From the sequence record MN850651.1: a stretch of 64,000 nucleotides of DNA, one strand, 5' to 3'. Source of the DNA: Escherichia phage moskry. The translations under genes were made by a program, and so were the position numbers. The notes under the pieces are model-generated. The model worked only from the letters and a program-made list of their open reading frames with translations, had not been told where the DNA came from and did no database searches. This document shows, piece by piece, positions 5,692 through 51,635 of the stretch (positions are counted from its first letter, which is position 1; every line of letters starts with the position of its first letter).

Positions 5692-6350
5692 TGACTGTAC
5701 TTAATACAAAGGCGGGAGTTATTTCCCGTCATGCTGATTTTTTGAATTACAGAAAAAATCCAGCTCAAATTGATGTTTTAAACAACCAAGCTGTAGGTTC
5801 CGTGACTATTTCTCAGTTAGCTCGCGGTTTTTATGATGCTAACGTAGAATCTGCAATAAATGATGTCCATAATATGGCACGAGCTGATATTGGTACTGTT
5901 GTCACAAACACTTCAGGCGTATCGCCTGAAGGTACAGCACAAGTTGATTATTGGACTTTTTCTGGTGATGTTCTCGACGATACTTTGACCACTGGAACGC
6001 CAGTCGTTATTAACGTATTTGGACTTGCTGTTAAAGCAACAATCGGTATGACTGATAACGAATTAACGGCACAAGTTCGTATAGCTTTACAAGAAGCCAT
6101 TGCTAATCAAATCGCTATTTCTTCTTATAAAGACCATCCATCCGAAGGTAATAAACTTCAGGTGACATATTTAGATAACCAACGTCATGTGTTGCCAACA
6201 TATGCTTCGTTTGGTGTAACAATTTCGCAAGAAATTTTGTCTGAAGCAAAATCCGGATACGGAACATGGAATTTATTAGGTGCCCAAACGGTTACTCTTG
6301 ATAACCATGATACTCCTACCGTTTTCTACCACTTTGTGAGAGCCTCATGA
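5691..6350 (+). CDS. 11: Baseplate wedge / short tail fibre attachment protein gp11
   Basis: Start moved to the ATG overlapping the gp10 stop (TAATG); 219 aa as in T4 gp11; ends ...TVFYHF like T4. Confidence 0.9.
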
Positions 6351-44720: not shown

Positions 44721-44751
44721 GTTATACTCTAATCCGTTCTTGGATGTAAAC
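44721..44751 (-). promoter_or_regulatory. Weak candidate early promoter
   Basis: GTTTAC-N19-TATAAC; non-consensus -10 and long spacer. Confidence 0.3.
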
Positions 44752-45365
44752 TACTTAACGAAATTAATTTCTACCGGATGAACAACAGGTTGAGCAGTGA
44801 TATATTGAGTAATTGCTTTCATGACTAGAGCTTCAGAACCAGGATTTTTCTCAACGAATTCACGTGCTTGGTTATGGGCTTCAAGTTCACTTAGTAAACC
44901 GGAACGTTGGCATCCACGGTCTTGAGTACCCTGTTCAGATAAAAAGACGACTATGTATTTTTCATCGTCATACGGTTTAGACGGTTGAGCAAATGTTCCT
45001 TTACTTCCAAAAGGAGAGTTATGACGCCACATCACGCCGTGAGGAGTTTCAACCTTCGTATATTCGTGCGGGCCATTTTTCTTAGTTTCTTGATGTGGAA
45101 CTTCGTGGACCTTAGGGTTAGGACATTCAATAAAATGCTCATCTAAATCGGTCGAGAATATTAAAGTAAAACAATTACTAAATTTACCAACACCTGCCTG
45201 ATAAATTTTACCTTCAGAAGTTCTAATTTCACAAACTGAGCCAGCATCAGTAACTTCTAAAACTTCAAAAGGCTCGATAAGGTCATATGAGAACATGTTT
45301 TTAAGGCGTGGAGTAATATCCCCATTTTTAAAATTCATTTTATAAAAAGTATTAACTTTAAACAT
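44751..45365 (-). CDS. Hypothetical protein
   Basis: 204 aa; RBS GAGGA; UUCG hairpin immediately upstream. Confidence 0.5.
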   Translation of the reverse strand: MFKVNTFYKMNFKNGDITPRLKNMFSYDLIEPFEVLEVTDAGSVCEIRTSEGKIYQAGVGKFSNCFTLIFSTDLDEHFIECPNPKVHEVPHQETKKNGPHEYTKVETPHGVMWRHNSPFGSKGTFAQPSKPYDDEKYIVVFLSEQGTQDRGCQRSGLLSELEAHNQAREFVEKNPGSEALVMKAITQYITAQPVVHPVEINFVK

Positions 45366-47579: not shown

Positions 47580-47888
47580 TTACATAAGAAGCAAACGTTC
47601 TACTGGAGTACCATCAACCGAAATTACTTTATCAAGGCGGAAAGAACGCCACTGACCTAACTCGGTATCGAATGCTCGAACTGATTCACGAGGTTCAGAA
47701 CGAACTTCTGTTGATGGGTTACTATTTTCATATTTGACTTCAAGTTCATCGCGGGAGGCAAACATCGTACGAACATCACCGTTAGCCTTTTCAAATACAA
47801 CACAATGAACGCCTACAGACAGAATAGTTTTAATACGTTCACGAAGAACCATAGTTTCTCGTTCAGTTAAAATCATATTATTCACCAC
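47580..47888 (-). CDS. Hypothetical protein (31.1-like position)
   Basis: 102-aa ORF upstream of gene 31. Confidence 0.5.
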   Translation of the reverse strand: MVNNMILTERETMVLRERIKTILSVGVHCVVFEKANGDVRTMFASRDELEVKYENSNPSTEVRSEPRESVRAFDTELGQWRSFRLDKVISVDGTPVERLLLM

Positions 47889-48459
47889 AAAAGTTTCGGA
47901 TTTGTTCCCAATTCAGAGAACGAAGATTATTACGAGAGTACTGAATTACTTCAATACCGGCTTGTTTTAGAATGTCGGCCCAATTTTCAGGAGATCTGTC
48001 ATATAATTCCGCGTATACAACCTTTTTAATACCTGACTGCGTAATAGCTTTAGTGCAATCAGGACACGGAGAAAGCGTAGTATATAACGTAGCACCTTCA
48101 ATAGAATTACCTTTACGAGCTGCAAACAAAATTGCGTTCAGTTCCGCATGGATTTCGTTATTAGCAGACCATGCACTATGAGCGGCCCGATGTTCTTTAG
48201 CCAAAACAAAATTATCCACCCGTCCAAATGCTGTAGTGCCTTCTTTATGCCCAGCAACGATGACCGGGCTTGGTTTATTCTTCAACCAACCGTTTTCGGA
48301 TGCATGTTCACAACAGTTAACACCACCGGCCGGGCTACCGTTATACCCAGTAGAAATAATGCGCCCATCTTTTTCAATGACGGCACCAACTTTCCATGAA
48401 CAACATTTTGATTCTTGAGAAATCAGATATGCAATCTGAAGGTATGTGCTAGCTTTCAT
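47878..48459 (-). CDS. cd: dCMP deaminase
   Basis: 193 aa as in T4; zinc-binding deaminase motifs HAELNAI and SPCPDC. Confidence 0.9.
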   Translation of the reverse strand: MKASTYLQIAYLISQESKCCSWKVGAVIEKDGRIISTGYNGSPAGGVNCCEHASENGWLKNKPSPVIVAGHKEGTTAFGRVDNFVLAKEHRAAHSAWSANNEIHAELNAILFAARKGNSIEGATLYTTLSPCPDCTKAITQSGIKKVVYAELYDRSPENWADILKQAGIEVIQYSRNNLRSLNWEQIRNFCGE

Positions 48460-49451
48460 TATTGAACCTTATTAATATAAGTTAACAGCTCTTTAGTTTG
48501 TTCCCAACTGATGCACGCATCGGTAACGGAAACGCCATAGGACATATTATCAGAAATTTTTTGATTTCCTTCATGTAGGAATGATTCTATCATAATTCCT
48601 TTGACCAAATCATTAGCTGCTAAATTTTTACCAATACCAATTTGATTGCTATAATGCCCATCAGCGTTTGCATGGCTACAGTCAACCATTACATAATGAT
48701 TCAGACCTACTGCACTTGCTTTGTTAGAAGCTTCTTGAATATCAGAAGAATGATAGTTCGGGCCGTTGGTCCCGCCACGCAATACGATATGCGTATTCTG
48801 ATTACCTTCAGCTTCAACAATGCCTACAGTACCATCGACGTCCATACCCATATACCGATGAGGCCAGGCGGCACTATACATCGCGTCTGTAGCTACTTTA
48901 ATAGAACCATTGGTTGCGTTCTTGAAGCCTACGCACATCGGTAGACCTGAAGCAATTTCACGATGTGTCTGACTTTCAGTCGTACGGGCGCCAATAGCAA
49001 CCCATGAGAAAATACCAGAAAGATACTTAATCGTGAATGGGTCTAATACTTCAGTTGCTAATGGAAGTCCCATACGTAGAAGTTTACGACACAATGTTCG
49101 TGCAACTATAAGACCGTGGTTCATATCAAAACTTCCGTCAAGATATGGATCATTTACAAGACCTTTCCAACCTACGGTAGTTCGAGGCTTTTCAAAATAA
49201 ACGCGCATCACTAACAGAACATTAGGAAGACGAGTTTGAAGTTCAGCCAAACGTTTGCCGTATTCAACAGCAGCAATAGGGTCATGAATTGAACAAGGAC
49301 CTACAACAATAAGTTTGCGTGGGTCTTCACCGTTCATAATCGAATTAACTTGTTCGCGATGAGAAGCCACTTGTGATGCGTAAGCTTCCGACAAAGGAAT
49401 AATCTCAGCCAGTTCTTTTGGAGAAATAAGTTTTCCGACGACAGGTAACAT
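48459..49451 (-). CDS. 3-deoxy-D-arabino-heptulosonate 7-phosphate (DAHP) synthase, type I-alpha (AroF/AroG/AroH family)
   Basis: 330 aa; motifs GPCSIHD, VMRVYFEKPRTTVGWKGL, GARTTESQTHRE, ILRGG, DCSHAN, ESFLHEGNQ, YGVSVTDACISWE; metal ligands Cys/His/Glu/Asp and PEP-binding Lys/Arg conserved; RBS AAGGA. Confidence 0.85.
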   Translation of the reverse strand: MLPVVGKLISPKELAEIIPLSEAYASQVASHREQVNSIMNGEDPRKLIVVGPCSIHDPIAAVEYGKRLAELQTRLPNVLLVMRVYFEKPRTTVGWKGLVNDPYLDGSFDMNHGLIVARTLCRKLLRMGLPLATEVLDPFTIKYLSGIFSWVAIGARTTESQTHREIASGLPMCVGFKNATNGSIKVATDAMYSAAWPHRYMGMDVDGTVGIVEAEGNQNTHIVLRGGTNGPNYHSSDIQEASNKASAVGLNHYVMVDCSHANADGHYSNQIGIGKNLAANDLVKGIMIESFLHEGNQKISDNMSYGVSVTDACISWEQTKELLTYINKVQ

Positions 49452-49571
49452 AACAATCCTTAGGAGATATAAACAGATTCTGATTCAACAATACCTTTAA
49501 CCGGATTAGACAGGCTAAGTTGGTAGTGCTCAGATTTATGACCATTCTCGATAGTAATGAGATAGCTCTCA

Positions 49572-49808
49572 TTATAGTGTTCCATATACTCGAGTTGCTT
49601 CAACAAGACCATCACTGCCTAATTTAAGATTAGTAATTTGGTCGCCATCTTTAGGATTTACAATTATGAGAAAAGAACGTGGAGATTCTTGAATAACTCG
49701 TAATGTTGCATCCTGGAAACGTTCAGACACTTTATTTATGAGTGCTTGAGCAAATTCTTTTACTTTAATCTGAAATTCGTGCACTGTAATTGGGTTTTCA
49801 CTTAGCAT
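49572..49808 (-). CDS. Hypothetical protein
   Basis: 78 aa; RBS GAGGAA; early promoter at 49838-49867. Confidence 0.5.
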   Translation of the reverse strand: MLSENPITVHEFQIKVKEFAQALINKVSERFQDATLRVIQESPRSFLIIVNPKDGDQITNLKLGSDGLVEATRVYGTL

Positions 49809-49837: not shown

Positions 49838-49867
49838 ATAGTATCACAACTCTACCATGTTGTAAAC
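49838..49867 (-). promoter_or_regulatory. Early promoter for ORF 49572-49808 and downstream DAHP synthase/cd
   Basis: GTTTAC-N18-TACTAT; -10 in the loop of a 9-bp inverted repeat. Confidence 0.55.

Positions 49868-50548: not shown

Positions 50549-50549
<1 letters not shown>
50358..50549 (-). CDS. Hypothetical protein
   Basis: 63-aa ORF coupled to pseT. Confidence 0.4.

Positions 50550-51635
<1,086 letters not shown>

Follow-up and report, generated by a model that had tools for sequence, protein, structure and literature searches.

The cd-pseT interval and its cassette

The window analysed here is a stretch of 64,000 nucleotides from Escherichia phage moskry (sequence record MN850651.1), a T4-like coliphage of the RB69 group. 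Its minus strand carries, at 48459..49451, an open reading frame that begins with ATG and codes for a protein of 330 aa, assigned to the type I-alpha DAHP synthases and to PHROG 5045 from Pfam, NCBIfam and PHROG matches. Directly downstream on the same strand lies cd (47878..48459), the gene for a dCMP deaminase of 193 aa (Pfam dCMP_cyt_deam_1, E=1.6e-26) that shares 96% DNA identity with RB69 up to its start codon, and the polynucleotide kinase gene pseT (50549-51448) flanks the locus. ORF calls and Pfam matches agree here with a preliminary description of the sequence, which had placed the gene between dCMP deaminase and polynucleotide kinase, and the T4 record shows cd.1-cd.5 in the same interval of T4. 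The stop codon of the DAHP synthase gene (48461-48459) and the start codon of cd (48459-48457) have one base in common, and the resulting TAATG overlap (48457..48461, minus strand), visible in the sequence itself, suggests that the two genes are co-transcribed and that their translation is coupled. Within the region examined, no further shikimate-pathway gene of the phage was found, which makes any benefit dependent on spare capacity among the host's downstream enzymes.

The presumed transcription unit opens with a cd.2 homologue of 78 aa (49572..49808, minus strand; DUF7320, Pfam E=1.5e-35), identical at 74 of 77 residues to RB69 cd.2 and at 49 of 75 to T4 cd.2. A promoter-like site of the sigma-70 or T4-early type was located by consensus scan at 49838..49866 (minus strand), with TTTACA and TACTAT separated by a 17-nt spacer that contains TG; the scan returned 14 sites where 14.3 were expected, so that the match alone is no better than chance, and the site lies between cd.3 and cd.2, the position of an early promoter in the T4 record (misc_feature).

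By blastn, the genomes of this phage and RB69 are colinear and 96% identical on either side of a 1,113-bp cassette (48463..49575, unstranded) that is absent from RB69 and comprises a foreign cd.2 fragment, the DAHP synthase gene and one copy of a repeat. Direct repeats of 13 bp mark the two boundaries of the cassette, namely copy 1, ATAATGAGAGCTA (49563..49575, minus strand), at the cd.2 stop and a pseudo-start, and copy 2, ATAATGAAAGCTA (48450..48462, minus strand), at the DAHP synthase stop and the cd start, which agree at 12 of 13 bases; the RB69 junction holds a single repeat copy. The foreign fragment is a 41-aa ORF (49460..49585, minus strand) that corresponds to the C-terminal part of cd.2 (positions 44-76 of the 78 in Pfam DUF7320, 28.8 bits), matching the cd.2 C-termini of Kanagawavirus at 20 of 39 residues and of Marfavirus at 18 of 33, against 10 of 33 for the phage's own cd.2. 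It is read here as a putative recombination scar within the cassette, the structure of which documents gene exchange among T4-like genera at a conserved hotspot.

Family assignment, catalytic residues and distribution

The 330-aa protein matches Pfam DAHP_synth_1 (PF00793) with E=7e-75 and 251.9 bits (cut-off 25.5), the NCBIfam equivalog TIGR00034 aroFGH with 427.2 bits against a curated cut-off of 173.2, which places it in type I-alpha, and PRK12755 with E=1.6e-136 and 454.7 bits (cut-off 343). All four of its NCBIfam matches are DAHP synthase models, and the scores for the AroG-specific NF006723 (363 bits, cut-off 568) and the AroH-specific NF009396 (385 bits, cut-off 463) stay under the respective cut-offs. 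The PHROG 5045 profile is matched over its full length (605.2 bits, E=5e-182), with residues 1-330 of the protein aligned to positions 8-337 of the 341 in the profile, and among PDB sequences E. coli AroF is matched best (6agm, E=6e-105). An AlphaFold2 model (pLDDT 90.7, pTM 0.91) predicts the (beta/alpha)8 barrel of DAHP synthases, and its top Foldseek matches are all DAHP synthases, among them AroG 8e0u (TM 0.95, rmsd 1.8 A). Pfam, NCBIfam and fold thus bear out the earlier identification as a 330-aa type I-alpha DAHP synthase.

Thirteen catalytic positions were checked in an alignment (C61, H268, E302, D326, R92, K97, P98, R99, T100, A164, R165, K186 and R234, in AroG numbering), and the window protein retains all 13, as does every member of the phage clade. 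The metal ligands of AroG, Cys61, His268, Glu302 and Asp326, correspond to C53, H260, E289 and D311 of the phage protein and are invariant across 20 of 20 aligned sequences. The PEP-binding residues R92, K97, A164, R165, K186 and R234 of AroG become R83, K88, A155, R156, K177 and R225, and the E4P-phosphate motif KPRT(T/S) is kept as K88-P89-R90-T91-T92. The alignment therefore confirms the metal ligands and PEP-binding Lys and Arg residues announced in the preliminary description, and the E4P-binding residues are likewise in place. Six of the seven motifs quoted there occur literally, GPCSIHD at residue 51, VMRVYFEKPRTTVGWKGL at 81, GARTTESQTHRE at 154, DCSHAN at 257, ESFLHEGNQ at 289 and YGVSVTDACISWE at 305, while the one given as ILRGG actually reads VLRGG, at residue 223. 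An assignment to KDO8P synthase (KdsA), a member of the same Pfam family, is not supported, since the NCBIfam matches are all to DAHP synthases and the KPRT motif that separates the two enzymes is present as KPRTT. Judged by its sequence, the gene is a genuine and intact type I-alpha DAHP synthase, and its product is probably catalytically active.

The presence of this gene in phages is already known, and earlier publications list it as a putative auxiliary metabolic gene. Dozens of GenBank/RefSeq phage records annotate a DAHP synthase or phospho-2-dehydro-3-deoxyheptonate aldolase, and the gene is listed among the suggested auxiliary metabolic genes of mosigviruses (bioRxiv 10.1101/2020.01.19.911818) and as one of a Klebsiella phage (PMC11845039). 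Any novelty of a phage DAHP synthase as such consequently falls away, with more than 200 annotated phage genomes, a PHROG (5045) and these listings, and gene presence by itself carries little weight, since it is so widely annotated. The literature search returned annotation-level mentions alone and found no functional study (assay, complementation or expression) of a phage DAHP synthase. What is new in the present analysis is the remodelling of the feedback site, the single phage clade and the structure of the cassette.

An identical or near-identical gene is found in about 139 Mosigvirus records, the window protein being 100% identical to that of Escherichia phage MM02 and sharing 99.7% identity with many more, and there are 212 phage records overall, each with a copy whose alignment covers at least 96% of the query. 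The phage copies invariably lie in the pseT-cd interval, a position shared by Mosigvirus, Marfavirus, Winklervirus, Bragavirus, Kanagawavirus and Kagamiyamavirus as well as by two metagenomic T4-like contigs. In a neighbour-joining (NJ) tree the phage copies, from T4-like phages of Enterobacterales, form one clade (200 of 200 bootstraps) on a long stem beside AroF-like gammaproteobacterial enzymes, and the subfamily is confined to T4-like phages (Straboviridae) of Enterobacterales. Between genera the proteins are 56-77% identical and dN/dS is 0.15-0.20, so that the DAHP synthase is under purifying selection; within Mosigvirus, the 2 synonymous and 1-8 non-synonymous substitutions are too few to inform dN/dS. 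With phage genes on both sides (cd; cd.2/pseT), a locus shared by at least six genera and this dN/dS, the gene has the features of an auxiliary metabolic gene. It is dispensable: RB69, moha, JK36, JK42, mar005P1 and ECO111 5-P are without a copy, and T4 has never carried one. No recent bacterial donor can be named, the nearest bacterial homologues being 50-55% identical and scattered over several phyla. The gene is also carried in 25 Klebsiella phage records.

Remodelling of the feedback-inhibitor site

Ahead of the column of AroG Leu17 the phage protein has 8 residues, compared with 16 in AroG, 17 in AroF and 15 in AroH, so that 7-9 N-terminal residues are missing and AroG D6 and D7 have no counterpart. 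This stretch counts 6-10 residues in 25 phage-type sequences, whereas it has at least 14 in 98 bacterial homologues. A start-codon artefact is ruled out by an in-frame TGA 36 nt upstream of the ATG, with no alternative start between them, and by a start position that is conserved from genus to genus; a Shine-Dalgarno sequence, AAGGA (49457..49461, minus strand, read from the sequence), precedes the ATG at 49451 with a 5-nt spacer. The N-terminus, described earlier as shorter than those of AroG and AroF, is indeed so, and the same holds for 25 of 25 clade members. The N-terminus of AroF and AroG reportedly has a role in inhibition, and presumably acts, through AroG D6, D7 and I10, as a cap that closes the inhibitor site.

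The changes extend to the site itself, for which the 25 phage-type sequences (56-100% identity) were compared with the 98 bacterial homologues over 329 aligned columns. Only six columns are conserved within both groups but differ between them, P150I, Q151K, D155G, S180P, F209Y and T223A in AroG numbering (I141, K142, G146, P171, Y200 and A214 in the window protein). Four of the six are listed inhibitor-site positions (hypergeometric P=1.5e-5), the D155 position reportedly and the T223 position presumably adjoin the AroG inhibitor site, and none of the six lies inside the active site. Positions 150-151 read I-K/R in 24 of 25 phage sequences and P-K in one (P0022 keeps Pro at 150, and P0020 has Arg at 151), against PQ in 91 of 98 bacterial ones; at position 180, all 25 phage-type sequences have P, and 97 of 98 bacterial homologues have S. 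In AroG, the substitutions P150L, S180F and F209A/S give feedback resistance, Q151 and S180 contact the inhibitor, and D155 stabilises the site (PMC9529685). The phage protein does not possess an intact amino-acid inhibitor site, made up of the N-terminal cap and P150, Q151, S180 and F209.

The inhibitor site is systematically remodelled and the catalytic core is unchanged. Because the inhibitor pocket is dismantled and the N-terminal cap is absent, the enzyme is predicted to be unresponsive to Phe, Tyr and Trp, and it is probably unregulated. Feedback insensitivity had been proposed from the truncation alone, and the replacement of P150, Q151 and S180 by I, K and P strengthens that proposal considerably at the sequence level. 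The listed pocket positions are at the same time highly constrained, 11 of 12 being at least 95% conserved in the phage clade compared with 134 of 329 columns overall (P=3e-4). This near-invariance speaks against simple loss, since loss alone would predict relaxed constraint there, and the rebuilt pocket may have acquired a new ligand or a structural role. The significance of the remodelling is that it is natural, involves multiple sites and is stable across at least six phage genera.

Proposed role, alternatives and known systems

The reading that we favour, with a probability of about 0.7, is that the gene codes for an early-expressed, feedback-insensitive, active DAHP synthase that feeds the shikimate pathway. 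It builds on the observed family, catalytic conservation, fold, inhibitor-site remodelling, purifying selection and conserved locus, and extends them by inference to activity, feedback insensitivity, early expression and physiological purpose. Transcription would run from the promoter through cd.2, the cd.2 fragment and the DAHP synthase gene to cd, together with the early genes of nucleotide metabolism, and translation of the DAHP synthase would be coupled to that of dCMP deaminase. Its product would combine an untouched catalytic core with a pocket in which P150, Q151, D155, S180, F209 and T223 have become I, K, G, P, Y and A, and after host shut-off would sustain carbon flow into shikimate and chorismate whatever the aromatic amino-acid pools, and would thereby provide virion protein with aromatic amino acids and/or yield cofactors derived from chorismate, such as folate.

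The constraint on the pocket can also be explained by an active enzyme in which the rebuilt site binds another effector, for example an anionic metabolite specific to infection, or a protein partner, so that shikimate entry is tied to the state of infection. The former amino-acid pocket would then have become a site of regulation or interaction that is both new and strictly conserved (I-K, G, P, Y, A), and the contribution would be other than bulk aromatic supply: folate and quinone synthesis could be kept up when Phe, Tyr and Trp shut the host isozymes, or E4P and PEP could be re-routed under an infection-specific signal. The replaced positions are near-invariant despite 56-77% identity between genera, which indicates constraint and not decay, the change of Q151 to K puts a positive charge in the former pocket, and a model is provided by the neighbouring T4 dCMP deaminase, allosterically controlled by hm-dCTP (according to the T4 record, hm-dCTP and dCTP activate cd). 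However, packing at the dimer interface or at beta6a/6b that locks the active conformation predicts equal invariance, the missing N-terminal cap leaves the cavity open and not closed, and a candidate ligand or partner is indicated by none of the data; we regard this explanation as unlikely.

Slightly more doubtful still is a benefit from consumption, in which draining E4P, PEP or both would shift the flux through the pentose-phosphate and glycolytic routes, perhaps to favour pentose phosphates for nucleotides and DNA arabinose, or perhaps to depress PEP-dependent host functions. The gene is placed among nucleotide-metabolism genes, and DAHP synthase co-occurs with arabinose-5-phosphate isomerase in mosigviruses, Winklervirus, Kagamiyamavirus, Kanagawavirus and some Proteus phages. 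This isomerase draws on ribulose-5-phosphate, which RB69-type phages divert to NDP-arabinose, and these phages attach arabinose to their DNA (PMC6024577, PMC13326640); the DAHP synthase gene is unmentioned in the papers on the arabinosylation pathway. Yet RB69 arabinosylates its DNA without a DAHP synthase gene, and removal of E4P would, by stoichiometry, also take carbon from the pentose pool. The isomerase is found in 57 Acinetobacter phage records, whereas Acinetobacter-named DAHP synthase matches are only four (from short contigs of one metagenome-derived record, 45-48% identity); conversely, the 25 Klebsiella phage records with DAHP synthase face at most three Klebsiella isomerase records, the name being outside the ten commonest. 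An obligatory link to DNA arabinosylation is rejected, since RB69 is without the gene and the tblastn distributions disagree both ways.

A shift of substrate is very improbable, whereby the enzyme would use PEP with arabinose-5-phosphate or another sugar phosphate, in the manner of KDO8P synthase, and release a product other than DAHP. Both synthases belong to Pfam PF00793, the phage that carries the gene makes arabinose-5-phosphate, and E. coli DAHP synthase accepts five-carbon phosphates, if poorly; but the E4P-specific KPRTT and all checked residues of the active-site region are unchanged, the active site contains none of the six clade-defining substitutions, and the NCBIfam matches are all DAHP synthases. 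A functionless passenger, captured recently and heading for decay, is suggested by the dispensability of the gene in several mosigviruses, its mobile 1.1-kb cassette and the few, mostly non-synonymous Mosigvirus substitutions (4-8 non-synonymous against 2 synonymous, tiny counts), but can be dismissed as contradicted by the conservation data, namely copies that cover at least 96% of the query in 212 of 212 phage records and span at least six genera, dN/dS of 0.15-0.20 between genera, invariant checked catalytic residues, and a phage clade that is monophyletic (200/200) and at most 55% identical to every bacterial homologue retrieved.

An active, feedback-insensitive enzyme expressed early thus remains the preferred reading, and mosigviruses with and without the natural cassette (the present phage versus RB69, moha and JK36) make it possible to test cleanly whether aromatic/chorismate reprogramming is of benefit to a lytic coliphage. 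The same gene, in the same locus and with 98-100% aa identity, is that of PHROG 5045 and of Mosigvirus phages such as JS09, ST0, HX01, phi25-307, APCEc01 and F2, where the records label it variously as hypothetical protein, 'aroF, Tyr-sensitive' or 'AroG'; the isozyme labels AroF and AroG are unjustified because the inhibitor site is remodelled. The phage protein is 51%, 47% and 43% identical to E. coli AroF (Tyr-sensitive, PDB 6agm/6agl), AroG and AroH, respectively, and the same reaction chemistry is expected from its TM of 0.95 to AroG and the identity of the checked metal, PEP and E4P residues. It is, however, 20-26 residues shorter overall than these enzymes, and two of its surface loops (AroG ~281-287 and 311-313) and its C-terminal tail are shortened.

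Engineered feedback-resistant AroG (P150L, S180F, D146N, F209A) and N-terminally engineered AroF and AroG offer a second comparison, since P150, Q151, S180, F209 and the N-terminus are altered in the phage protein too (PMC9529685). Like these enzymes, the phage enzyme is expected to give deregulated entry into the shikimate pathway and, if truly insensitive and active, would be a ready-made equivalent of what metabolic engineers obtain by mutagenesis. Unlike them, it is a natural combination of several changes, long fixed, in which D146 is retained and the residues I, K, P and Y are not the engineered ones. A further comparison is with other auxiliary metabolic genes carried by T4-like phages (for example cd, td, frd and nrd of nucleotide metabolism, or the NAD salvage genes of KVP40), where a host-type enzyme is likewise encoded within an early operon, presumably to overcome a bottleneck once the host has been shut off. 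In contrast to the nucleotide genes of this group, DAHP synthase acts on the supply of amino-acid and cofactor precursors, and it differs from these auxiliary genes in being a single enzyme of a seven-step pathway, dispensable and patchy in its distribution.

Gene, neighbours and predicted expression

The open reading frame at 48459-49451 on the minus strand has an ATG start and encodes 330 aa, as the preliminary description had stated. It is preceded by the Shine-Dalgarno sequence AAGGA, 5 nt before the ATG. An in-frame TGA stands 36 nt upstream, and the stretch from this TGA to the ATG offers no other start codon. Six of the seven motifs that had been quoted occur literally in the protein, while the one given as ILRGG is really VLRGG, at residue 223. 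The TAA stop shares a base with the ATG of the dCMP deaminase gene (a TAATG overlap), and downstream this gene, cd (dCMP_cyt_deam_1), is followed by those of a 31.1-like WYL_2 protein and of the gp31 co-chaperonin. On the upstream side come four small conserved ORFs (cd.2/DUF7320, cd.3/DUF7355, PHROG 3609 and PHROG 2360) and pseT (HAD_PNKP and AAA_33). The small ORFs cd.1-cd.5, given in the preliminary description as the T4 content of this interval, are indeed found there in the T4 record; the checks of reading frame, motifs, neighbours and T4 interval thus confirm the gene description. The GC content is 41.1% for the gene and 38.1% for the window.

Between cd.3 and cd.2, at 49866-49838, there is a promoter-like element, TTTACA-17-TACTAT, which has an upstream TG. 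The consensus scan that found it is by itself no better than chance (14 sites against 14.3 expected); the element coincides with the position of an early promoter in the T4 record, and no terminator-like minus-strand site was seen between it and the synthase gene. On these grounds the synthase gene is probably co-transcribed early with cd.

Two observations concern the surroundings. In the window, pseT (50549-51448, minus strand) encodes 299 aa from a GTG start, while in the near-identical phage vB_EQ1 (L001, 5750-6526) it is annotated at only 777 nt (258 aa), and other records label it 'AAA family ATPase' or 'zeta toxin'; these differences are annotation inconsistency, not biology. In the 30.x region, Pfam returned nothing at E<=0.01 for a 204-aa ORF (44751-45365, minus strand), whereas its neighbours match the gp30.3, gp30.7 and gp30.8 families.

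A known gene on a repeat-bounded cassette

The gene proved to be already known and annotated. By tblastn it was detected in 212 phage records. Identity is >=95% for 139 of these (a single record reaching 100%), 60-80% for 47 and less than 60% for 26, and many of the records name it phospho-2-dehydro-3-deoxyheptonate aldolase, DAHP synthase, 'aroF' or 'AroG'. The surrounding 3.7-kb region is 97.9-99.5% identical to many RB69-group Escherichia and Shigella phages, among them the mosigviruses JS09, HX01, ST0, phi25-307, APCEc01, F2 and SHSML-52-1, and in 139 records the match spans at least 80% of its length. The protein belongs to PHROG 5045 (605 bits), in the category 'moron, auxiliary metabolic gene and host takeover'. 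The mosigvirus synthase has been suggested to be an auxiliary metabolic gene (AMG) of unknown function (bioRxiv 10.1101/2020.01.19.911818), a DAHP synthase was reported as a domain match in phage phiC120 (PMC8022965), and in Klebsiella phage KLB31 one was hypothesised to be an aromatic-amino-acid AMG (PMC11845039). The searchable literature holds such passing mentions only, with no functional test or characterisation of a phage DAHP synthase found.

The gene is absent from RB69, the type mosigvirus, in which cd.2 abuts cd. The window is colinear with RB69, at 96% identity, on either side of an extra 1,113 bp (48463-49575). This cassette is bounded by 13-bp direct repeats, ATAATGAGAGCTA at 49575-49563 and ATAATGAAAGCTA at 48462-48450, which match at 12 of 13 bases. 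The RB69 junction carries a single copy (L010, around 6237-6255), as do about six other mosigviruses without the cassette. Inside the cassette, a 41-aa ORF (49460-49585, minus strand), 'hypothetical protein' in deposited genomes, corresponds to the C-terminal part of a cd.2-family protein (DUF7320). It looks like an import scar, since it resembles the cd.2 of Kanagawavirus (20/39 identities) and Marfavirus (18/33) rather than the phage's own (10/33); the closest DAHP synthase of another genus is also in Kanagawavirus (77%). The simplest reading is that the cassette entered an RB69-like ancestor from a different T4-like lineage, through recombination at microhomology, with a direction that is unprovable because deletion between the repeats would restore the RB69 arrangement.

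The cassette is present in about 139 records and the empty junction in 11 (RB69 twice, ECO111 5-P, mar005P1 five times, JK36, JK42 and moha). In a small sample of two genome pairs (window 48159-49751 against SHSML-52-1, L014, and JK45, L015), divergence is 0.6-0.8% in the cassette synthase gene and 5-7% in the first 300 bp of cd, a difference consistent with a recent spread, sweep or exchange of the cassette. Shigella phage JK45 (MK962757.1) has Tequatrovirus in its taxonomy line, and its region, cassette included, is mosigvirus-like (about 99% identity). Mosigvirus synthases differ by 4-8 non-synonymous and 2 synonymous changes, counts too small to interpret, some of them at the extreme N-terminus (MLPVVGK, MLPVIRK, MSPVVRK; residues 2-6; window 49436-49448).

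A rebuilt feedback-inhibition site

That the protein is a DAHP synthase is close to certain. It matches Pfam DAHP_synth_1 (E=7e-75), NCBIfam PRK12755 (455 bits, cut-off 343) and the aroFGH equivalog TIGR00034 (427 bits, cut-off 173), and it scores below the cut-offs of the AroG- and AroH-specific NCBIfam models. In a computed alignment with E. coli AroG, AroF and AroH (NC_000913), ten phage and six other bacterial homologues, 13 of the 13 catalytic positions checked are conserved, using a residue list based on AroG structures. They comprise (AroG numbering, here and below) C61/H268/E302/D326 as metal ligands, R92/K97/A164/R165/K186/R234 as PEP ligands, and the motif K97-P98-R99-T100. Profile searches and alignment both agree with the identity and catalytic residues first proposed.

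The best 120 of 8,000 database homologues begin with 23 clusters which, together with the protein P0029, share 56-99% identity and come from phages or T4-like contigs; the nearest bacterial proteins, only 50-55% identical, come from scattered phyla. A neighbour-joining tree (123 sequences) unites the 25 phage-type sequences in a monophyletic group (200/200 bootstraps), which adjoins, on a long stem, an AroF-like gammaproteobacterial group. In every locus checked (Mosigvirus, Marfavirus P545, Winklervirus X20, Bragavirus PM2, Kanagawavirus Entb_45, Kagamiyamavirus EcS1 and two metagenomic T4-like contigs), the gene occupies the pseT-cd interval and is separated from cd by at most two small ORFs.

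All members of this clade have 6-10 residues before the AroG L17 column, leaving D6 and D7 without counterpart, while all 98 bacterial homologues have at least 14. Only 6 of 329 aligned columns are clade-defining (>=95% conserved in phages, >=90% in bacteria, with a different residue): P150->I, Q151->K, D155->G, S180->P, F209->Y and T223->A, which are I141, K142, G146, P171, Y200 and A214 of the phage protein. Four of the six are on a list of 12 inhibitor-site positions fixed before the comparison (hypergeometric P=1.5e-5), and none is in the active site. T223 is two residues from V221, presumably on the same strand. In AroG, feedback resistance is complete with P150L and is also conferred by S180F, F209A/S, L175D, L179A and V221A; the bound amino acid is in contact with Q151 and S180, and a D155 salt bridge stabilises the inhibitor site (PMC9529685). 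Judged by these columns, the phage clade is set apart almost exclusively by an apparent loss of the canonical Phe/Tyr/Trp site. The rebuilt site is the main addition to the preliminary description, which had proposed feedback insensitivity from the shorter N-terminus; the six-column remodelling supports it far more strongly than truncation alone, and the enzyme is quite probably feedback-insensitive.

A basal clade member, P0022, from a T4-like contig in a crustacean metagenome (ENA; L011, 2517-3515), combines P-K at 150-151 and P at 180 with an N-terminus of 10 residues. Its inhibitor site looks intermediate and might record the succession of steps by which the site was taken apart. On this contig, no cd adjoins the synthase gene.

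Within the clade, the inhibitor-site positions are nearly invariant (11/12, against a background of 134/329; P=3e-4), and hence still constrained, structurally or for some new ligand. A new effector site in the former pocket would account for this pattern, yet it is unlikely, as structural constraint could produce the same.

Proposed role and comparison with AroG

The functional interpretation first offered is supported and sharpened by the sequence comparisons. We give a probability of about 70% to the reading that the DAHP synthase is active, expressed early and insensitive to feedback, and that it would feed chorismate after host shut-off, with PEP and E4P flowing into chorismate regardless of aromatic amino-acid pools. 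Sustained chorismate supply as the physiological purpose has roughly even odds. Since the host AroF/G/H isozymes are under both inhibition and repression by aromatic amino acids, the gain, when these are present externally, may lie in chorismate-derived cofactors such as folate, of which T4-type nucleotide metabolism is a heavy user.

Slightly less probable than a new effector site is an E4P/PEP sink tied to pentose metabolism, an idea weakened because RB69 arabinosylates its DNA without the gene and because arabinose-5-phosphate isomerase and DAHP synthase are discordantly distributed. The isomerase (RB69, L017, 5964-6599) occurs in 269 phage records, 57 of them Acinetobacter, with Klebsiella absent from its ten commonest names, whereas DAHP synthase has 25 Klebsiella records and four Acinetobacter-named ones, those listed being short contigs of a single metagenome-derived record. 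The two overlap in several genera, yet by these distributions are not linked. A changed substrate specificity is very improbable, given that every catalytic position checked is conserved and the six changes fall outside the active site, and a functionless passenger is scarcely credible with dN/dS at 0.15-0.20 between genera, where dS is near saturation.

By sequence, E. coli AroF (6agm, E=6e-105) is the closest solved structure, and Neisseria and E. coli AroG enzymes rank next. The AlphaFold2 model of the phage protein (pLDDT 90.7, pTM 0.91) superposes on E. coli AroG structures with a TM of 0.95 and an rmsd of 1.8 A.
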